Origin: Lama glama
Lineage: Eukaryota
Direction: 5' to 3'
DNA: 64,000 nucleotides
Assembly: GCA_028534125.1 (NCBI GenBank)
Contig: CM052816.1
Coordinates: 29,886,001 to 29,950,000, forward strand
A program made the translations under genes and the position numbers. The notes below the pieces were generated by a model, which was given only the letters and a program-made list of their open reading frames with translations, was not told the origin of the DNA and did not search any database. Positions within the stretch are counted from its first letter, which is position 1; each line of letters starts with the position of its first letter. Shown here piece by piece: positions 3,126 through 54,615 of this stretch.

Positions 3126-4170
3126 ACCCAGCAATAGGAAGGTGAAGTGTATCTGGTGGGTTTCCATCACCAGCTGTAAGGGCTAGTGATGACCGAGCAG
3201 ATGGAGGCTGAAACAGTATGGGAGAAAGGGGTGCATACAGTATGCGTGTGTTACACCGGCAGTGCCCAGTGAGCACCTGCAATAGTGGGAGAACCAAGAT
3301 GCATGATCCTAATGCCAGGTGGCATTGCTATTTGAGGCACATATACTTGTGGGGACTGTGAACCCTGGATGGGCCTTATTGTGACAACTTGCCGGTTGGA
3401 AATGTCCACAGGTAGTAATCTATGCCTATCCCAGCTGACAGACATTTTTGCATTATATACATGTCTTTAGGTCTAATAGAAGCGTCAGATGTCATAAATT
3501 AAAATACATATGATTAAGTAGTTTTTTAAGCTGTGGTTAATCAGATCATGACAGAGTTAAATGAACAGATTTTAAACCCTTATTAATGTTTCTAATGCTA
3601 AGCATTTACTGTTAAAAATCAATATTTTTCCCAAAGTAATGACTCAAGATGCTGGATTATATCATTTAAGCATGAAACTTTCTGTGATAAATATGCTTTG
3701 GGAAATGATCTCACATCTAACGTTCCTTTTAGGGAAAGTGGAAAATTTAAAGCATTTGGACAAAACCACATATAACTTATTTTATCTAGAAATAATTTTT
3801 TCAATAATAAATATGCATTTAAAACATTGTAAAAGTATAAATTCTGTAATACTGTACAAATTCTAAGAAGGCAAGAAAATAATTGTTAATCAACTGTTGG
3901 ATTAATGTTTATTATAACTAGTAGTTTGTATTTAGAATTGTCAAAATTGTGATAGAGCTGTGCATTTTATACACTGTAGTACTTTCGGGTTTTCTCATAT
4001 AAGTAATATATCAGCATTAATGGGAATGTCCTTTTAATATGGAACTTAACAATTTTGTTGTTCTTTCCATTCTTTGTTTCCTTAACAAGGTCTAAAGTAT
4101 GAATTCTTCCTGCCTTCGAGGAAGGGTGACCTTGGAAAGTTTGCTTAGTTGTAAGAATGAAGAGTATTGT

Positions 4171-4315
4171 GGGGGAGGGTATAGCTCAGTGGTACAGTGT
4201 GCGCTTAGCATGCACGGTGTCCGGAGCTCAATCCCCAGGACCTCCATTTAAATAAATAAATAAATAAACAAACCGAATTACCTCCCCCAAATTCCTCTCC
4301 CTCAAAAAAAAAAAA
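4171..4315 (+). mobile_element. Camelid-type tRNA-derived SINE
   Basis: tRNA-like head 'gggggagggtatagctcagtggtacagtg...tcaatcccc' with A/B-box-like motifs, (TAAA)n spacer, 'aattacctccccc' and polyA tail. A second copy lies at 25546-25672. Confidence 0.9.
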
Positions 4316-4324
4316 TGATGGGTC

Positions 4325-4570: not shown

Positions 4571-5002
4571 AGTCAAAAGCCAATGACTACTAATAACTTT
4601 TGACCTATGATTGTATCTCAAGTTATTTGACTCAAGATCTTTGAATGATGTGCTTTCCAGGCCCACTGCCAAAGGCTAGAGAGGGAGAATTATAACAGCT
4701 CCCGCTTGTTGAGTGTTTACTGTGCGTCAGGCTCTTTTCCAGGCACTTTACATGTACTCTTTTAGTATGTCAAGAAGAAAGAAGAAAAAGGAATTAATAT
4801 CTAATGTCTTAGATAACATGATGGAGAAGAAGGCTGCTTATGTCTCCAAGATCCCCTGAGCTGGTGTGAGAAACCGCTGGTCCTGGTCAGGGAATGGCCT
4901 TGGGTCTGGCTTTCTAGCAGCACAGCCCTGAGTGGAATGGTTCATTGGTGCGTCTGTGCCCGTGAGGGCATAGACACTTTTGTAAAAGGTTCCTGATGGA
5001 AA

Positions 5003-6132
5003 ATAAAAGCAAGAATAAACATATGGGACCTAATTAAACTTACAAGCTTCTGCAAAGCAAAGGAAACCATAAGTAAAACAAAATGACAACCTACGGAATG
5101 GGAAAAAATTTTTGCAAATAAAACCGACAAAGGCTTGATCTCCAGAATATATAAGCAGCTCATACGACTTAATAAGAAACAACCAAACAACCTAATCCAA
5201 AAATGGGCAAAAGACCTAAACGAGCAATTCTCCAAGGAGGAAATACAAATGATCAATAGGCACATGAAAATATACTCAATATCACTAATTATCAGAGAAA
5301 TGCAAATCAAAACTGCAATGAGGTATCAACCTCACACCAGTCAGAATGGCCATCATTCAAAAGTCCACAAATGACAAATGCTGGAGAGGCTGTGTAGAAA
5401 AAGCAACCCTCCAACACGGCTGGTGGGAATGCAGTTTGGTGCAGCCACTGTGGAAAACAGTATGGAGATTCCTCAAGAGACTAGGAATAGACTTATACCA
5501 TATGACTCAGAAATCCCACTTCTGGGCATATATCCAGAAGGAACCCTACTTCAAAATGACACCTGCACCTCAATGTTCCTAACAGCACTATTTACAATAG
5601 CCAAGACATAGAAACAGCCTAAATGTCCATCAGCAGATGACTGGATGAAGAAGATGTGGTATATTTATACAATGGAATACTACTCAGCCATAAAAACCAA
5701 CAACATAACGCCATTTGCAGCAACATGGGTGTTCCTGGAGAATGTCATTCTAAGTGACATAAGCCAGAAAGAGAAAGAAAAATACCATATGAGATCGCTC
5801 ATGTGAAATCTAAAAACAACAAACAAACAAACAAAAAACCCATAAATATAAAACAGAAACACTCATAGACATGGAATACAAACTTGTGGTTGCTAAGGGG
5901 GCGAGGGGTGGAAAGGGACAGACTGGGATTTCAAAATGTAGAATAGATAAACAAGATTATACTGTATAGCACAGGGAAATATATACAAGATTTTATGGTA
6001 GCTTACAACAAAAAAAAAAGTGACAATAAATATATATATGTTCACGTATAACTGAAAAATTGTGCTCTGCACTGGAATTTGACACAATATTGTAAAATGA
6101 CTACAACTCAATAAAAAATGTTTTTAAAAAAA
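5003..6132 (+). mobile_element. 5'-truncated young L1 (ORF2 C-terminus remnants plus 3' UTR)
   Basis: Track ORFs give frameshifted L1 ORF2 C-terminal motifs ([45 protein letters not shown]). The L1 AATAAA is at 6110-6115, followed by an A-rich tail. Confidence 0.95.
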
Positions 6133-6411
6133 GGAAAAAGTGAGATGAAAATTCTAGCTACAGTGAGACTGAAAATGGCTACAAACCTCAAGCTACAGTT
6201 TGTCAAAAATGCCTATCAAATACTATGCCAACTGGATTAAATCAAGGTAGACCCGAAAACTGAGTACAATGTTTCACAGTTCAAATATCATGTGTATTTC
6301 CCTAAAAGATATGTATAGGACTTTGAGCACCTAATTTTTAATCCTTTTCTTGGAAAAATTAGGTGGAGGATGGGATAGGAAAACCAATAAAATAGTTGAC
6401 AATTAAAAAAG
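6133..6411 (+). other. Putative L1 3'-transduced segment
   Basis: Non-L1 DNA between the L1 tail and a second AATAAA (6386-6391) plus A-tail. It is enclosed by TSD aaaagRttcctgatggaaa at 4984-5002 and 6412-6430. Confidence 0.8.
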
Positions 6412-8064
6412 AAAAGATTCCTGATGGAAAGATTTCCATCATGGAATTATCAAAGGGCGGTCAAAGTAAGGTCCCTTTTCCAACTTGAGCCTTGCCCTGC
6501 AGGTTGGACGGCTGTCACTAGAGGGTGCACTGCCCACGCTGGCACGTGAGGACTAGGCAAGCTCTCCTTTCCATGGACAACTCCGCAAGCTTTCACTTTG
6601 AAATCTAGAGCAGCCCTTCCATGAGGAGGTATCTCCCCAGCACAGACTCCCCATATGTGCATCCGCCCTCCTCTCACAGCCCTCCAGCAGGCACACCTCT
6701 GAGATCAGGAACGGTGGTGGGGCCGTGATCATGCAGACGGGTGAGAGGGCCTTACTGTGGCGCTGAACCGAAGCCTCCTAAAACTTCCTGAGCTCTAACA
6801 GTGATTAATGATCCCTACATCGCATTAATATTTGGTATATATCGTGCTTATTTCAGAGATTTTTAAAAGGAATGCTTTATCCTGTAGCAAGACAGAAGAG
6901 GTATAGTTTCTACGTATATTTCCCTAAATCTGTATGAACTTAGGCAAGCCATTTACTGTTACCCATTTTTCATCATGCTTGGATTTTAAGATGATGTAAA
7001 AAATTTCTGCCAGTTACGACTTAGAACTCATTTTGATGACTTTGAATGCTTACAGAAGATCATGCTTCCAGAAGATCTTTGAAGCAAGATTATAATATCG
7101 GGCTCTGCCTTGCAGATTGACAGGAATGAGGGCTGATAAAAGGAGAGAAGCTCTTGGAGCAGACTTTGGGGACAAGGGTGACAAGTTTGTCAAAGAAAGA
7201 AAAACAGTAAGATGGAGAGGAGAGACAAGATGGTGACTGGTGGAGAAAGTAATTACTCTGTGGTGATGTCAGGTGGGGGTTTGGAAATCTTCGTGTTTGG
7301 GGTACATTTGCAGGCTGACTTTTTGTGGACTAAATATCTGACAGCTTATTTCTGATTTCCTTAGGTTATTTTATCTTCTTAACCCCGAGGACTTAAAGAA
7401 GAATAGAAACTATGCATTAGGTTCCTGGGCCAAAGGGAAAAGACAGAAGGAGTTGCAGCAAGTTTCTTAGCCTCCTGGTCCCCAGTGCTGGGCTCCAGGA
7501 TGTAGTAGTTCAGAAATCCAGGCGTACTTTCTTTAGGGAGGATTGTGGCTTAGAGTGAGGAGATGTTAATCACTCCTTGTGGACCCTGGTTATAGCTGTA
7601 TGAGTGGCACGTACAATTGTGACCTTGAAGAGAACTGAGGAGCAGAACTGGGTCTTGGGGGACAGAGACACACGAGCTGCAGCAGTTGTGAGTCTCCCTG
7701 CTTCTGTGCCGCAGAGTGAACCATCTTCTCCCTGGTTTCTCTTCCTTACAGCATCAAAAGTGGGAAATGACCTATCATTGGCTTATTTCTTCCTCAGACT
7801 CATAAAATGGAGAATGTATCTAATTACTTTCTCTTGCATAGGGATACAATTTTTAATACATTTAAAAAGTACTTTTTTTTTTGGTTTGGTTTCAGTGCAT
7901 CACACTAGAAAGTTATCTTTTGATATATTCTCATTTTTTTAGATTTTTCACGTTGTCAAAGAACTTTTTTTTTTTTTAAAGGAGGAAATAAAAAAAATCT
8001 GTAGAGGGATGTTTTCTTGCCTAGGCTGAAATCTCTTATATTTTCTTACTCTAAACTTCTGAGA

Positions 8065-8592
8065 CAGTTTTTCAAACGTGTCAGGTCATGGTGACCTTAG
8101 TGTTCCAGTGCATTTCTTATGGCACACCTTGGCCAAAGAAATACCGAGCAGTTCTGTTTATTAATTAGTTAGGTTCAGACATCTTGAGTATTTATACGCA
8201 ACAGCTTAATGGACATCTGAAAAAGTAATACACATGAACTGAATTTTTTAAAAAATTCTTAAATAACCACAATTACTTATTAATGGGATGTGTGTCTCTG
8301 TTGGGCACTTCCCAGTTTCCCAGACTTTGGAGTCAGATTGAACCTCCTGCACTTCCTGTTCCATATTTGTTTTCTGAAATACTTGCTTTTTATCACAGCA
8401 GCCACCCCAAACTTAGCTTTGCAGAGATGTGACCATCATTGAAAGGAATATGGTGTGATCTAATGTTGAAACTATCTCTAGCCAGGAGTTTGTGCTGTCT
8501 CAAATAAGTCAAATATTGTATTTTTTTTCCTCAAAACTTTAAAACAACTGAGAACACTGTAGTGTCTTGGTGCACAGCTTGGGAACTGACTC
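8065..8592 (-). mobile_element. hAT-Charlie non-autonomous element (MER119-like)
   Basis: TIR-like ends 'cagtttttcaaac' and 'gcacagcttgggaactg'. Internal 'ctttgcagagatgtgaccatcattgaaaggaatatggtgtgatctaatgttgaaact' matches my recall of Charlie-derived MITEs. Confidence 0.6.
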
Positions 8593-9130
8593 TAAGATTA
8601 GGTAATGGAACTTAATGATTGGATTTTAAGAAATTCCACCATAGCAGAGGGTTAAGCTGCTAACAATGTCTTCATTGCCTGTCGCTATCCAGTTGGTGGG
8701 AAGAGAAATTGCGATCTGAGCCACCAGGAAGGCAGGTGTGGAACTAGCAGGGGAAAATGTTGATGGCTACCTTGAAAAGGAGCTGAGAGAAAATTCTTGG
8801 CTTATTCTGACTCAGGGAATCCCCTGAAAGTCCTAGGAAGACAGAGCCAAGTTCACTCCAAGGTGTCCAGCCTCTGAGGCTGCTGGTGAGGTGCATGGGT
8901 TTCATACAAGTAAAGGGCCTGGATAATCTCCGTGCGTATAGAGCTTCACCATGTAATGCTTGGTATGTGCGTTATGCAAAATTTCATGTTACGTAAACTC
9001 ACTGAAGTCTGTGTTTGGTTCTCTCCCCCGCATTTCATAAAAACTCAAGTGTAGACAAAGGGGGCAATATGCTGTCAGCGCTCCTTCTGGAATTCAGGTG
9101 TTATATTTATTAATACTTGCTGTTTTAAGA

Positions 9131-11045: not shown

Positions 11046-12883
11046 AAGTCTTACTTAAGGTAACAGACATGAGGGTCAGCAGTTAGGACTTGGGAGAGTC
11101 CATTTCTGTGGAAGTGAATTCTCCAAGAGTAGGGTTGCTGTAAGAAGGAAGAACTGTAAGTTTTTGCTACCTAGGTTTAAATATGGCAGCAGTTAATTGT
11201 GGAAAGTGAAGGGCACTGTCTGAAGCAGCGCTTGACCCATAGAGAGGAAGCTGGGGAAAAGTTGGGAGGAACAGAAGCTGCACCCAGCACCGCTGAAAGG
11301 ACTTCAGCTCTCCTACACACTGGTCAGGGACACACAAAATTGAGCATGAAAACAGGAAGAGTGGTTTTGAAGCTCAGGCAGTCCAAGCCACCCACGACCG
11401 CTTTGAAAAACTTCCAGCATTCACCTCAGGAAATGACCCTTCCCATTGCTTGTGCACATTCTGGCTGGCAGCCCAGAAGCAAGGGATCAAGGAAGATGAT
11501 TATAAAACTCAGAATTTGCTTAAGTAAGGCCAGATGAGTTTGCGGGTTCGGTGGGTTTGGTGGAGGTGAGGGGGGTGGAGGTGATGGGGAGGGGTGGGAA
11601 GGAGAGTTGTCATGATGGTGATGGTTTTTGTTCTTAAGAATAGTGCTTAGAAAGTATTACACAAAATTTTTAAGAATTTGTTTTAACCAACTGAAAAAAT
11701 TGTAAAATGTTTTAACTTTGTTCAATTTATGACTTGATTTGGGGTAGGCATGATGGAAATGTTAAATCTCTGGGTGTCGGGGGCTCCAGTGGCTGTCTGA
11801 GTCACAGAAAATTAACTTTGGATAAACTTTATGCACCACCCAGTCCAATGAACATACTTTGCAGTTGGGGAAATTGTCTTAGGGAAGTTTAATTTCCCCA
11901 AACTTTGCCATGACTTTATAGAACAACCAAGACTAGCATCTGAGCTATTCGTCTTGGCATCTGGTGCTGCCCATGTTCTAAAAGGCCTAAAACAATGGTG
12001 CTGTAACACTGCATTCCAGGCTGAGACATGGACTCCAAGCAGAGAGCCACAGAGATTGCTCTCTTGCTGAATTTACATGAATTTGATGACAAGGTCCCCA
12101 AGTCCCTGTGGGTCTCAAGGTGGTACTTTAGGTAATAGCATTTCTTTGGATACGTTTTTAAAAAGTATTAATTGAGACCACTTTCCCCAAAGTTAAGTAG
12201 GAAATAATTTATCAATGAGTCGAACAGGTTACCTGGAATAGTGACATCTTATCAAAGGAGACAGCATTTCTGCCAAACCTAATTAGCTGACCTTGAGCCC
12301 TGAGTGTCTTGGCTGAAAGTGATAACTAGAAGCACTTCTGTGAGCTTGTCAGGAGCTCACTGGGGTGTTGGTTTGTGCAGATGCCTACATCTGTCAGTAA
12401 ATGTGTCTTAAATCATAGCTGTGGGTTTGGCCGGGCAGCCCTAACAACCCTGGCTTTCACGTGGGGTCAGGATATAGGCTCTGTGCAAACGGGAAGCACC
12501 CTCATTCTGGCCTCATTCAGTGGACTCACGAATCCCTTCCTTTCAGGAATCTGACCAAACAACCAAACTGCAGGTTTCCTTGAAGTGAGATTCCAGCCAA
12601 TTCATAATAGCTTCTGGTACTTTTTACTCCGCTCTAAGAATTTTGGTTTTAGTGCCTGTGAACTGCAAGACGGTTGTTATGGGCGAGTAGCATAGGAAGA
12701 GGGAGCTTGGGGCTGGCATAGAAAGGGATGGTGAAGGTTGTATTAAAGTCAACTGAAGGCTTTCGGCAGTGACGCCTCAGGAGAGATGGTGAGCTGAGGG
12801 ACAGTGGAGGAGGACAAGGAAGAGGCAGTGGAGTGGTGTGGGGGCCGAGATTGGGAGGGGAGTGAGTAGAAAGAGACAGTAAT

Positions 12884-13257: not shown

Positions 13258-14670
13258 GCAATTAGGACCTTGAAGGAGGGAACTGGTATAACAAAACTAT
13301 CGAATAGGTGGCATTGGCCTCACTGCTGAGTGAGGGGCTGGAAAGACCATGATCTATATTATGAAGAGGGCAGACATTTGGTAAAAGTGTTGCTTGCAGT
13401 AACCTTGAAGGCAGATCACTTACTTAATAAATTTGTAAGAGATTGGAGAACAGAATCTTAGTGTGTGTTGGTTGCTATTGACTGTGCTTAGCAAGCTCAG
13501 AAAAACACTGGCCAGTGCAAGCAGGAGTGAAAGCGAAGAGGGGGAGTCCAGAAACCTGGGGACTTGTGGGCTTGGAAGGGACAAATGTTTTCAAGCCTAA
13601 CTGGTAAAAGACAACACTGGGCAAAGGCTGATTAAAATTCATCCTCATGATAAATAGCAAATCATGAGTATGGTTGGCATCAGCTGCTAAAACATTTGGA
13701 TGGATTAAAGCATCTTGGAATAAGTTCCAACTAATGAGATGGTACCCAAAAAGTCCTCTCAGTGGGACAAAATGGCTCAAGGAAAAGAAACTAAATGTGT
13801 GGCTATGGCTCTGTAGTCTGATGGACCTACAGTCCCTGCAATTAAAATGAAAGAGAGACAGAGGGAGACAGAGAGGCAGAGAGAGAGAAGGAAAGGGAGG
13901 CGTGGGGGTGAGACAGCAAAGAAATCACAGCAGGTCTAAGAAGCCTGTCAGAAAGAGAACCACGGGCATGGCTGTTGGTACAAGGCGCGAGCAGGCCTCA
14001 AATAGTAAAAGTTAAGTTTTCAGGAGGCCCTTGAATCCTTTCCATCCAAGAATCTGACCAAGCAACCAAACCAAACTGCATGTTTTAACCTCTGGTACTT
14101 TTTACTCGATGCTGAGACTATTGGTTGTAGTGTCTGTGAGTTGCAGGACTATTGTTACCAGGGAGTAGCATAAGAAGAGGGAGCTTGCAGTTGTATTAGT
14201 AAAAGAACCGCTAGCCTAAATGTTTGTTTGTTTGTTTTAAAAACCTGATTATTGAAGACCTAAAATGACTTTTGGGTAGAAGTGGACAGAGAACGCTGCT
14301 CCACCCTCATTGAAGGCAAGTTCCTCAGTACCTATACTATTGATCTCCAAGGATGATACTGGAAAAGGAAAAAGCTACCAGGGGGTGAGAGCCAACAGCC
14401 ACGGAGAACAGTGGCTGGAGATCTCCTCCCACAGAGCGTACCTGGGGCCTATGTGTGGGGTATCCTCCACCTGTGCCCGCCCAAAGATATTTCTGAATCT
14501 TTGCAGACCAGTGACTGCTACAGGTCTTCCACTCTTCCATTCATTTCATCTTTGTCTTTTGGTGGGTGTCGGGCCTACAACTTAACATCTTTTTGGCTCC
14601 TAGGTTTCTAGATCAAGAGGAGTTACGGCTACATCTTTTACAGGAACCCTCATGTATTGCTCAGAAATTC
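13258..14670 (+). mobile_element. MaLR internal region (MLT1-int), interrupted at ~14027-14187
   Basis: Directly follows the LTR. 'ataggtggcattggcct...ggctggaaaga...catttggtaaaagtgttgcttgcagtaaccttgaaggcaga' is typical of MLT1-int. Confidence 0.7.
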
Positions 14671-14851: not shown

Positions 14852-15175
14852 TGTTAGTCCGGGTCCTCCAAGAAGTAGATGCCAAGATGGGATGAAATGC
14901 ACAAGAGGAGATGCGGGAGGCGCTAGGAGAGGCCGAGACAGTTCTCAGACCAAAAGGTGAGTCTGGTGCTAAGTGCAGAAGAAAAGACAGGAAGTTTGAG
15001 AAGAAGTGTCCTAAACCACCACGCAGTCTAAGGAAACTTCTGCAAGGTTGCTGGGGAGGCCTACACCCAAAGTCACCATCCGAGAAGGCCCCAGAATGGG
15101 CCAGTTGGAGTGCCCCTGCCATCCTCAGCTGCTGGCTGGGAGCCTTGGTCAGCTGCAGGCCCTGTAGTTGGAGGT
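14852..15175 (-). mobile_element. ERVL LTR (LTR16-like) nested in old L1
   Basis: 'tgttagtccgggtcctccaagaagtagatgccaagatggga...ctcagctgctggctgggagc' matches my recall of the LTR16 family. Confidence 0.65.
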
Positions 15176-15269
15176 CTGCAAGACACATTTTTCTGGTCAC
15201 CACTGTTAACTTAAAGATGTTCAACATGGGACGAGATGAGCAACCTCCCTCACAATAGATGGATTTCAA

Positions 15270-24809: not shown

Positions 24810-25850
24810 TGTTTCACCCCCAAAGCTGGTTCTTTCCCAGTGTTTTCTATCACAGTGCAATGCACCAGCGTCCTGTTAATACAGAAACCTAGGAGAGCTC
24901 TTTGAAACTCTCTTCTTGCCAAGGCGTTTACTTGTTTTCATGTCCACTGCTGCCACCATGACTAAACGACCATCTGTAATACAGATCAGGAGAGTAACCG
25001 CCCAATCGTCCTTCCTTTGCAGTTCTTGCCCTTTGTCTCCTCCTTCCAGCAACTGGATTGCTGTTGTGGAAACACCCGTACAAGTCAGTTCATTTCATTC
25101 TTATATTTACAAGCTTTCAGTTGCACTTTAGCAAAACAAACAAACAAACAAAAAAACAAAACAACTAAGCCAAACCAAAACCAAAACCAAAATCAAAATT
25201 CATTAAATCCTTACCATGGCCTGCAGGAGTCTGTGTGATCTGGGATCTGGGATCTGGTCATCGCCTGTGAAGATGCCAGCGTCTCTCCTGTTTGGATTAC
25301 GGGAACAGCCACCTCTTTATTTGGCTTCTTCTCACTGTTAGATGAAAACAATGTGGTTAGCATCCCTCCCTGGCTTTTCGCTGTGTGTCCTTTGCTTCTC
25401 CAGCCACATCTTGCTCTACATTTCCCTGTGTTCCCTCTGCTCCAGCCAGTCTTTTTTCGGTACTGGGTCCTGCCCCCAGAATTCTGTATCTGCTTCTAAC
25501 TTGATCTGGAACATCCTTTCTCCCCTTAACTAACTCCCTCTTTATTATTTTATTTGTATTCATTTACTTGGGGGGGGGAGTAATTAGGTTTCTTTCTTTA
25601 TTTTTAATGGAGGTACTGGGGATTGAACCCAGGACCTCGTGCATGCTAAGCACACACTCTACCACTTCCTCCCTCCCTCTTTATCTTGACAGCAGATTAT
25701 AAAGAGTGTTTCTGCAGAGCAGTCTTCCTGGCTCTCGAGGTCACATCATGTGCTTTGTTACACGGGCTTTTACGAATGTGGCCCCCTCCTACTTACCGCT
25801 TACTGTAAACATCCATCTGTAAAGTGACCTTAGCTGTCTCTTTTCTCCGT
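24810..25850 (+). mobile_element. L2 LINE 3' fragments (interrupted by SINE)
   Basis: 'cccaaagctggttctttcccagtgttttctatcacagtg...cagaaacctaggagag', 'aaatccttaccatggcctgcagg' and 'ctctgctccagcca' are degenerate L2 motifs. Confidence 0.65.
25546..25672 (-). mobile_element. Camelid-type tRNA-derived SINE, 5' end partly lost, 12-bp TSD
   Basis: 'gagtaattaggttt...atggaggtactggggattgaacccaggacctcgtgcatgctaagcacacactctaccact', with TSD ctccctctttat at 25534-25545 and 25673-25684. Confidence 0.92.
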
Positions 25851-25870: not shown

Positions 25871-27564
25871 GTCGGGGCAGGGCGGGGCGCCTCGTGAAGA
25901 GGGTGGCGCGTGGCGTGTGGCTCTCGCGCTCGTCTGCCCGAGTCTCAGCTCAGCGCACTGGCCGGGGCGCGCTGGTCTGGGGCCCCGCCCCCTTCTCCAC
26001 CCCCCTCGCCCCTCCCCCCCACGCCGCCGTATACCCGACATGCCCCGCCCCCCGCAGAGGAGGCCAGCGCCGCGGAGCAGGTTTCCGGAGCAGCGCCCAG
26101 GCGGACTCAGGCTTCAGCGAGGCCCGCAGGCAGCACCAGTGAATGCCTCGGCCTTGTTAGCGCCGCAGCAGAGGAAAGCCCTGGGGGGGATGCCGTGGGT
26201 GAGCAGGGTCAGCAGGAAGACCTTGAGGAGAAGTTAGTTGAAGGAGTATGTGGCCTGCCTCACAGACGAGCGTGCGGAGTGCTCTGGGGAGCCTGCGCCT
26301 GGCCCCTGGAGGCCCACCTCCTCCCCGCTCTTGCTGGAGCGCCGCCTCACACTGGCCCATGCCTTGGAAAAATGCCTTAAGAAAGGGAAGGGCGAGGAAC
26401 AGGCCCTGGCCGCTGCCATTCTAGGCCTGCTGTGTATGCAGCTGGGCCCTGAGCCCAAGGGCGAGGAGCTGTCCCACAGCCTGCACCCGCCGCTGGTCTC
26501 TGTGCTCCGTGATGGCACAGCTGGTCCTGCCGCCTGGCTCCACTGCGCTTCCGCTCTTGGCGTGGGCTGCTACAGGGCTGCTACTGGTGTACAGGACTTG
26601 GTCTTTGGCCCACCTGCTTGGATGTTATTTCCAGCCGGTTCTGTGGTGTGGGTGGCTCCACAGCCTGCTCTGTGCCGCCCTGCAGGCCTGGGCAGTGCGC
26701 CTCACCATCCGCCCCAGCACGCACATGAGCCACGTCCTGAGCAGGCGGCTGCTGCGGCTGCCCCGGCTCTTGTCCAGTCAAAGTGTGAACCTGCGGATCG
26801 CTGCCAGCGAGACCATTGCACTGCCCTTGGAGCTCGCCGGGGGCCTAGACGACTTTATTTACCACGAGGTGCTCTACGTGGACAGCTGGGCCCGGCGCAG
26901 GATCTAGGGATCTACACCGTCTTCAAGGACGTGCCGGGTTCCGGCCTGCACCATCACCTCCAGAACAACGAGCTACTACTCCGTGATATCTTTGGCCTGG
27001 GTCCTGTGCTGGTGCTGAATGCCACTGCCCTGAAGGCCTGCAAGATTCCACCTTTTAAGAAGCACCCGTACAACGCTCCCGTTTTAAAAGCCCAGACCGA
27101 GGCACGCAGCCGTGTGCAGGACAAGCGGGTTGACATCCTGTGAGGCGGGACCAGCTCAGGAGGAGACTGTCCATATCCTCGCCCATATTTTTAACAGATG
27201 ACAGTGCAACCCCTGGATCTTGCCAGGAATTGTCACTTTATTTTTTTTAATAACAAAACAACAAACATACATGTGAGTGGGTGACTGGAAGCCAGGCCAC
27301 TTGGGACCCTGGTGCTTTGCCCCTGCACTCAGCCCTGTGGCCTCTTCCTGCCCTGTTTCAGGCCTGTGGGGCAAAAAGAAAAGAGCTGTTTATTCCTTTC
27401 TCAGGTCTTGATCCCTCGGGATGAACCACTTCCTTAGAGGGGATAGTATTTGGACAGATGCCACTACAGCAGGTGAGAGGAATGGGTATATGTGCTAATT
27501 TTTTTTTTAAGATTATTGGAGATAATTAAACAGAATGCTCAGCCTTCAAAAAAATTAAAAAAAA
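25871..27564 (+). pseudogene. IFRD2: Processed pseudogene of interferon-related developmental regulator 2
   Basis: Intronless. Peptide blocks GGQRRG..RSSAQADSG, EQGQQEDLEEKLKEYV, LLERRLTLA.ALEKCLKKGKGEEQALAAA, LLSSQSVNLRIAA, HHHLQNNELL.RDIFGLGPVL and ARSRVQDKRVDIL* are spread over three frames. The former ATG is at 26040 and the stop TGA at 27141-27143. The 3' UTR ends with ATTAAA at 27525-27530 and an A-tail at 27548-27564. Confidence 0.96.
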
Positions 27565-52000: not shown

Positions 52001-53204
52001 GGGAAAATTTGTTGGTGCTTAGTTATGTTATTGTGTTCACTGCAGATTATAGCTTGTTACTTTCTGTTCCTCTCATATACTTTATCCACTTTAGTTTCAA
52101 AATAGAAATGAAATGCTGGTGTATCATCATTTTACAAGAAAGATATATATGTTTCTTCTATTGCATTAGACAGGTTAATATGTTTCTGTATTTTATAACA
52201 GGGAACTTTATTAGCATGATGAAATTAATGAATGCAGGGCAGTATCTTCCCAGCCAGTTGTTACCAGTAGATAAAGTCTGATGTGGTAATTGCTGACTGA
52301 ATATTAGATCAGGGTTATTGCTGAAGTAAAATCATTCACTGTGGGATGATCAGAGCTACAATATTGTGAATGATAAAAGAGCTGCCTTCACTCCCTAGTT
52401 TTAATTAGCTGTTAAAGAGGTGCCTTGGGTGATTCTGAAAGGCCCATCTTATCAATATTGTTATTTAGAAATGATTTACAATATTGTTACAGAGTCTGCT
52501 AATGTTTCTATCATTAAAGGTCTACCATTGTTTCCATTATGAATTCTATTGTTTGAAGGATTTGCAGACATGGCTTGAATATTCCTTTCAAAGCTCTGTG
52601 TGTATCTTTCTTTAAAACATATTCGAAGTTCTTAAAACCACCAGAGCTACTGTTTATGGATGGACCATTATTGATTTTTTTTATTCATATGACAGTGCCC
52701 AGCTTCAGTCCTTTAAAAACATGGAAGCCTCATTTTATAGGAGGAAATGACATCTCACCTTTATCCATTGATTGATTGGGTTTGGAAGTGAAAGTCTGGT
52801 CACCCTGGAAATCTGTAATTTGATATAATATATCTTCTGCCTTTTAATTACCTACTAGGCTTTTCTATTATTAATGCTTTGAAACATGAATAAAGTTTCC
52901 AAAATTATCTAATTTGTGATTTGAGGTGGTCCTGATTAAAATTTCCATATTGATCAATTCCTTAATAAATGTAAGTAGAAACATTTTTGAAGAATAAGTT
53001 TTCTAAAGGGTTAGAGCTCACATTACTATGACTATATTCCTGAAAAATCTGTTTGCAAAATCACAGTTCTGTAGGTTAAATCATATTTCCATTCCCTACA
53101 TTTGTACCATTACATCATTTTCCAGGTGCAACTGAAGGACTGTGGCCATTGGGTTCTTGGTTGTGCAATCCTTGGATATTTTTTTTTAATGTCATTTACC
53201 TATT

Positions 53205-54615
53205 CAATTTTATTTTTTTACCGAAGTATAGTCGATTTACAATTTTGTGTTAGTTTTGGGTGTACATTACAGTGATTCAGTATTTTTGCAGATTATATTC
53301 CGGTATAGGTTATTATGAGATAATAGATATAATTCCCTGTGCTATGCAATATGTCCATGTTGCTTAATTACTTTTAGATAGTAGTTTGTATCTGTTAATC
53401 CCAAACTCCAAATTTGTCCTTCCCTCTTTCCCTCTCCCATTTGGTAACCACAAGTTTGTTTTCTATATCTGTGAATCTTTTTCTGTTTTTTTATATACAT
53501 TCATTTGTATTATTTTTATATTCCACATATAAGTGATATCATATAGTATTTGTCTTTCTCTGTCTGACTTATTTCACTAAAATAATGTTGTCTAGGTCCA
53601 TCCATGTAGCTGCAAATGACAGAATTTCATTCTTTTTTATGGCTGAGTAATATTTCATTGTATATGCACACCACATCTTTATCCATTCATCTGTTGTCAG
53701 GCACTTGTGTTGCTTCCACGTCTTGGCTATTGTAAATAGTGCTGCTGTGAACATTGGGGGTGAATGTATCTTTTCAAATTACTGTTTTTTAATTCTTCCA
53801 GATATATATCCAGGAGTGGAATTTGTGAATCATATGGTAGTTCAATTCTTAGTTTTTTAAGGCACCTCCATACTGTTTTCCATAGTTACTGTACCAATTT
53901 ACATTATCACCAACAGTATATGAGGGTTCTCCTTTCTTCATATCCTCTCCAACATTTGTTATTTGTAGAATTTTGATGGTAGCCATTCTGACAGGTGTAA
54001 GGTGACACCTCATTGTGGTTTTGATTTGCATTTCTCTAATTGGTGATGCTGAGCATCTTTTCATGTTCCTATTAACCATCTGTATGTCTTTTTTGGAAGA
54101 ATGACTATTCAACTCTTCTGCCCATTTTTTGACTGGGTTGTTTGTTTTTGATATTGAATTGTATGAGCTGTTTGAATATTTTGGATATTAACCCCTTGTT
54201 GGTTGCATCATTTGCAAACATTTTCTCCCATTCTATAGGCTTTTTCATTTTGTTGATGATTTCCTTTGCTGTGCAAAAGCTTTTGAGTCATTTGGTCCCA
54301 TTTGTTTATTTTTGCTTCTATTTATTTTGCCTTAGGAGACTGATCTAAGAAAATATTGCTGTGATTTATGTCAGAGAATGTTTTGCCTGTGCTCTCTTCT
54401 AGTAGTTTTATGGTTTTATATCTTAAATTTAACTCTTTAAACCATTTTGAGCTTATTTTTGTATGTGGTATGAGGGAATGTTGTAATCCCATTGCTTAAC
54501 ATGTGGCTGTCCAGTTTTCCCAGCACCACTTATTGAAGAGACTGTCTTTTCTCCATTGTATATTCTTGCCTCCCTTGTCATGGATTAGTTGATTGTAGGT
54601 GTGTGCGTTCCCGGA
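53205..54615 (-). mobile_element. 5'-truncated L1 (ORF2 C-terminus plus 3' UTR)
   Basis: Minus-strand ORFs MFTAALFTIAKTWKQ..YYSAIKKNEILSFAATWMDL and [19 protein letters not shown], with a T-rich tail at the left end. Confidence 0.95.

Follow-up and report, generated by a model that had tools for sequence, protein, structure and literature searches.

The window, meaning the whole 64,000-nt stretch of DNA analysed here, contains an insertion made up of a 5′-truncated L1 element (5003 to about 6130) followed by non-L1 DNA that has an AATAAA signal and A-tail separate from those of the L1. One direct repeat, identical at 18 of 19 positions, encloses both. The best reading of this structure, to which we assign a probability of roughly 0.83, is a 3′ transduction that arose when transcription ran past the end of a source L1 no longer present today. 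The insertion has the features of a 3′ transduction, has no identifiable parent and fits the definition of a "parentless" transduction. Its parent L1 is probably extinct, since the copy is 6-7.5% diverged and present in all four of the public runs compared (three organism labels). The inserted L1 copy is itself dead, and no function is implied. The coordinates of its parts are collected in Table 1.

Table 1. Parts of the insertion, in window coordinates (TSD, target-site duplication)
Feature	Position	Strand	Remarks
TSD, 5′ copy, 19 nt	4984..5002	+	preceded by GT; endonuclease-like site GT/AAAA
L1, 5′-truncated, C-terminal end of ORF2 (presumed), with stops and frameshifts	5003..5830	+	923-nt match (74.5% identity) with the L1 at 53430-54321
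L1 3′ UTR, with AATAAA at 6110-6115 and a remnant of the source element's A-tail	5831..6130	+	high-copy sequence
Transduced segment, 274 nt	6131..6404	+	two copies per run; purine-rich start; AATAAA at 6386-6391
Second, short A-tail	6405..6411	+	no match in the donor
TSD, 3′ copy	6412..6430	+	doubles as an arm of the local inverted repeat 6417-6447

Direct reading of the sequence bore out the repeat reported in the initial annotation, at both coordinates and with 18 of 19 letters identical. The nick site proposed there, GT/AAAA, was likewise read at 4982-4987, one base off the L1 endonuclease consensus TT/AAAA as quoted in PMC13141329 and PMC13174262, and is thus an L1 endonuclease-like insertion site. 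The same annotation placed the repeat beyond the L1's own tail, and rightly so: that tail has no TSD, because, with one mismatch permitted, the only repeats of more than 10 nt between 4940-5011 and 6105-6499 are the TSD and its sub-strings. To estimate the chance level, all 60,981 19-mers of the window were considered, of which 13 have an 18/19 partner 200-3000 nt downstream. One of these is the TSD. The other twelve fall at 12547-12691, within or next to sequence for which self-BLAST finds a duplicate at about 14.1 kb. A chance repeat was therefore rejected, the remaining 12 of the 13 comparable 19-mers all belonging in or beside one local duplication.

A near-perfect inverted repeat, including the right TSD copy, spans 6417-6447 and has a DNA hairpin energy of -9.9 kcal/mol (z -4.0; 0 of 200 shuffles). 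Since the right TSD copy forms an arm of this repeat, the target adjoined, before the insertion, a sequence with the potential to form a hairpin. Because the A at 6416 in the right copy is paired by the downstream arm, it seems to be the left copy that acquired the one TSD mismatch. The comparison with other genomes covered the right junction only. There, the contig over 6340-7220 was unbroken in 4/4 runs, so all four carry the insertion, and no empty target allele was seen at this junction in any of them.

Concerning the L1 part, the translation of 5003-5830 belongs to what we take to be ORF2, and this ORF2-like fragment passed no Pfam cut-off. A microhomology of about two A's lies between the L1 start and the TSD end, the BLAST match to the second L1 copy starting at 5001. 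The L1's own tail ends in an A-run at 6126-6132. Its 3′-end motif had 0 matches in metagenome contigs. Within the window, self-BLAST matched 5003-5907 to an older minus-strand L1 (53430-54321, 74.5%) and 6029-6117 to a short L1 3′ end at 564-652. The older element, extending over about 53200-54600 on the minus strand, is 74.5% identical to 5003-5907 in ORF2, has a different 3′ UTR, and shows no continuation into the transduced segment. The shorter one is an L1 3′ end of about 110 nt on the minus strand (about 557-666) between perfect 17-nt TSD copies (540-556/667-683), a short truncated insertion. Used as an in-window control, it represents the ordinary case, in which the TSD follows immediately after the element's own polyA signal.

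Contigs of four public runs (X9, X11, X19 and X20) were aligned to 6021-7220 at 80% likeness. These four were taken from 20 runs, carrying three organism labels, that contain 91-98% of the words of 6133-7400, among 24 listed; 14 are flagged as possible sources of this DNA, and of the four compared X9 and X11 have this flag, X19 and X20 do not. Runs X21-X24 contain next to none of these words and are uninformative. The number of records aligned per run ranged from 6,019 to 8,888. Summed contig depth was 0.3-4 million over the L1 end (6021-6140). Past 6140, a depth of about 1e6 gave way to two contigs; over 6181-6300 the depth was about twice that of the flank, and it was flat from 6421 on. At 6118-6132, the loose ends that belong to other copies of the L1 continue into poly(A). 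The collapse of depth after 6140, together with the poly(A) of the other copies, indicates that the segment lies outside the subfamily 3′ UTR. The alternative that it belongs to this UTR, which the initial annotation had itself raised against its proposal, was rejected, given thousands of records on the high-copy L1 end versus two contigs on the low-copy segment in 4/4 runs.

The segment had been annotated as 6133-6404, and is indeed non-L1 DNA with its own AATAAA, its donor match starting at 6131 and not at 6133. The second A-tail, read in the annotation as aaaaaagaaaa, holds in its first part, an A-run at 6405-6410 after the AATAAA; G6411 and the TSD copy follow, and the last four A's belong to the TSD repeat. 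The cleavage point lies 13 nt 3′ of the AATAAA at 6386-6391. No second copy of the segment was found within the 64-kb window (best E 0.049). A 20-mer of the segment matched three loci, which were all discarded as chance matches of 20-24 nt without further similarity.

Analysis of the contigs over the segment revealed two per run in 4/4 runs, one from this locus (6106-6354, 0 differences) and one from another (6131-6354), in line with the earlier inference that this DNA came from elsewhere in the genome. The donor match begins on a purine-rich A-tract, and the donor contig over 6131-6354 carries 15-18 substitutions in 204 letters and two gaps, one of 14 nt at 6148 and one of 6 nt at 6319. The contigs of both loci are interrupted where the copies are identical, in the stretch 6325-6369. 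The donor match restarts at 6340 in another contig, with one substitution at 6370 and no difference listed within the AATAAA at 6386-6391; from the break pattern, we infer that the left and right donor contigs represent one locus. In the bin 6381-6420, depth arithmetic gave a donor coverage of 23.9-24.0 of 40 letters in 4/4 runs, which points to an end of the donor match at 6404, the base before the A-tail. As the match stops at 6404, before the A's, the second copy is the genomic template and the A-tail is non-templated; this end point likewise argues that the segment was copied through polyadenylated RNA. The second copy was also considered as a sibling or orphan transduction, and this was rejected because such a copy would match into the A-tail, but the match ends at 6404. 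A segmental duplication was rejected as well, the match being confined to 6131-6404 and the right flank being single.

Two further observations concern the alignment of the copies. The stretch 6325-6369, common to both, has 1.75-2.6 times the single-copy depth (above 2.3 in three of the four runs), reflecting either noise or a short third match. The 14 nt absent from the donor (6148-6161) resemble the region 6183-6199 (repeat 14/17 identical; 6183-6196), and the difference arose either by loss of these letters from the donor or by a local duplication in this copy.

Upstream of 6131, the donor contigs extend by 4783 (X9), 532 (X11), 5512 (X19) and 5513 (X20) nt. Over these 532-5513 nt, no same-family L1 3′ end aligned at 80% likeness in 4/4 runs, and no joint between a donor contig and an L1 appeared among the matches listed. 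The contig of the insertion described here stops at 6106, as soon as the L1 is reached, and the alignment still caught L1 ends from elsewhere that differed at as many as 19 in 100 letters. Unbroken donor contigs without an L1 match, combined with the alignment of such divergent L1 ends elsewhere, thus indicate that no same-family L1 adjoins the donor in these four genomes. Sibling copies of the segment were not seen in the four runs either, a single other contig covering 6131-6354. The initial annotation had hoped that the segment would identify the progenitor L1, that a longer L1 of the same subfamily would lie directly upstream of the matching DNA, and that sibling copies might exist; the donor locus was found, and in 4/4 runs it had no L1 3′ end upstream, no such longer element and no siblings. 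What stands of its proposal is the mechanism, 3′ transduction, as the best explanation of a segment copied via polyadenylated RNA from a second locus, without a source L1 in sight.

Under this mechanism, a full-length L1 would once have been located at the donor, ending directly 5′ of the base that corresponds to 6131; the purine-rich tract beginning there may be the source element's own target site or TSD. The transcript of this L1 would have read through the L1 AATAAA and A-tail into 274 nt of flank, and the donor comparison shows that the RNA was cleaved and polyadenylated 13 nt after the genomic AATAAA. Following established L1 enzymology, ORF2p would then have nicked GT/AAAA, with target-primed reverse transcription starting from the new tail. 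Copying would have stopped after about 1.4 kb, inside ORF2, leaving the 19-nt duplication, and the observed structure is consistent with a single event. The daughter copy would have spread, and the haplotype bearing the source L1 was presumably not fixed, or the element was later removed. We favour a lost parent because L1-free donor loci are the majority outcome in dogs and non-human primates. In a dog comparison, Halo et al. 2021 reported that 17 of 18 transduced sequences were not beside an L1 (PMC7980453), and a later dog study counted 24 parentless transductions out of 27, the other three lying beside an L1 (PMC13141329). Source loci in non-human primates are described as almost never having a full-length donor L1 (PMC4862182). 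For dogs and primates, parentless transductions are explained in these reports by a failure of the source L1s to reach fixation, and one dog case was settled when the L1 turned up on another haplotype (PMC13103737).

To place the event in time, the divergence of the donor copy was determined, with 16-19 substitutions in 254 aligned letters, that is 6.3-7.5%, or 3.1-3.7% per copy (uncorrected). Taking the rate of 2.5e-8 per 5-year generation quoted in PMC8605555, the insertion would be about 6-7.5 million years old. In the L1 end (about 100 nt), three listed sites differ from more than 90% of the family depth. Half the donor distance (3.1-3.7%), the TSD mismatch (1/19) and these three sites agree with one event. 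A typical mammalian rate would make the insertion two to three times older.

The lost-parent reading has points against it: the source L1, its siblings and the empty target allele are unseen, and the published parentless cases are young and polymorphic, whereas this one is old. The missing parent and siblings would be accounted for directly if no L1 had ever been at the donor and the insertion were a template-switch (or RNA-ligation) chimera of reversed polarity, made of a host RNA and an L1 RNA. Reverse transcription would start on the poly(A) of a host RNA ending at the donor AATAAA, and the T-rich end of the cDNA would jump to the poly(A) of the L1 RNA; the purine-rich junction is what annealing to poly(A) needs, and L1 chimeras with many RNAs are known (PMC13174262). 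However, the chimeras described in that source place the other RNA 5′ of the L1 and not 3′ of an intact tail, independent transcription of the donor would be required, and a lost parent is both common and sufficient. We consider this origin, together with the route it would take, unlikely. The source L1 could also still be at the donor, hidden by the contigs or by the alignment, in which case the 3′ transduction would have a living parent. Contigs drop rare variants, some records were filtered out, four of the 20 runs were compared, and the absence of a donor-L1 joint refers to the matches listed. Against this, three of the four runs have donor contigs that continue upstream for 4.8-5.5 kb without interruption, whereas the contig of the insertion itself stops at 6106. 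L1 ends as divergent as 19 differences per 100 letters were aligned, with no donor joint among those listed. A living parent therefore has only a slim chance in our estimation.

We also weighed two separate insertions, a 5′-truncated retrocopy of a host RNA followed by a later L1 at its junction with a 5-6-nt duplication. The motif GGAAA, through which the retrocopy would have been joined to the target, is common to 4998-5002 and 6133-6137, a coincidence with a frequency of about 0.6% for random pairs. At a purine-rich junction this match is nevertheless unremarkable, because 21% of 107 purine-only, A-rich sites of the window carry GGAAA at offset 0-3. Two insertions would further need a second hit within a few bases, a non-consensus site and an unusually short TSD, and the divergences show no sign of two ages, which makes this history very improbable. 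We thus retain the 3′ transduction from a lost source L1 as the origin of the insertion.

Other features were observed in the window. At about 26200-27143 lies an intronless, frameshifted and GC-rich copy of an IFRD-family gene, whose IFRD and IFRD_C domains pass in Pfam; it is probably an IFRD2 retrocopy, and no exact TSD of at least 11 nt was detected for it in the ranges tried. Positions 12547-12709 and about 14091-14187 form a local direct duplication, about 1.5 kb apart and 80% identical over 97 nt, which could be an LTR-like end pair or a tandem copy. Two tRNA-derived SINE copies, at about 4170-4320 (+) and 25574-25676 (-), are 80% alike, the second scoring as a tRNA in Rfam; like the L1 3′ UTR, they resemble camelid repeats. 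Finally, an open frame of 120 codons at 14896-15258 resembles a protein fragment, with no Pfam family and no Atlas hit.

On the best reading, the insertion would be a clean fossil tag, recording the former place of an active L1 that has since disappeared; it would also date and place one polyadenylation event, and matters little by itself. Genome-wide, such tags would measure the number of source L1s that were never fixed in the lineage. If the chimera of host and L1 RNAs were true instead, its products would look exactly like transductions whose parent has been lost. The counting of parentless cases would then change, as a share of the "parentless transductions" would not count lost source elements.

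The insertion is an ordinary example of a known process, probably in a camelid; a literature search outside subscription journals and supplements found no report of an L1 transduction in camelids. Partnered L1 3′ transduction was reportedly described by Moran in 1999 and, in 2000, by Goodier and by Pickeral. About 10% of reference L1s are reported to carry 3′ transductions (PMC4862182). The human and primate cases (Halabian and Makalowski 2022, PMC9311842; Tica et al. 2016, PMC4862182) are described with the same anatomy, including a polyA signal shortly before the cleavage site, and our 274-nt segment falls within the range of 8-997 nt (mean 206) given for human L1 transductions in PMC9311842. 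In contrast to those partnered examples, no source element is placed here, and the host is not a primate. The chimeric L1 insertions with U6, Alu or mRNA presented in PMC13174262 likewise join two RNA-derived parts that share one orientation and lie inside a single TSD, but their non-L1 part is 5′ of the L1, whereas here it follows, on the 3′ side, the polyA signal and tail of the L1 itself. The parentless transductions described in dogs (PMC7980453, PMC13141329, PMC13103737) likewise combine an L1, a unique 3′ segment and a new poly(A) within the TSD, and their segment likewise maps to one other locus without an adjacent L1. Those dog cases are young and dimorphic, and their parent may still segregate, whereas the present copy is 6-7.5% diverged and found in 4/4 runs.
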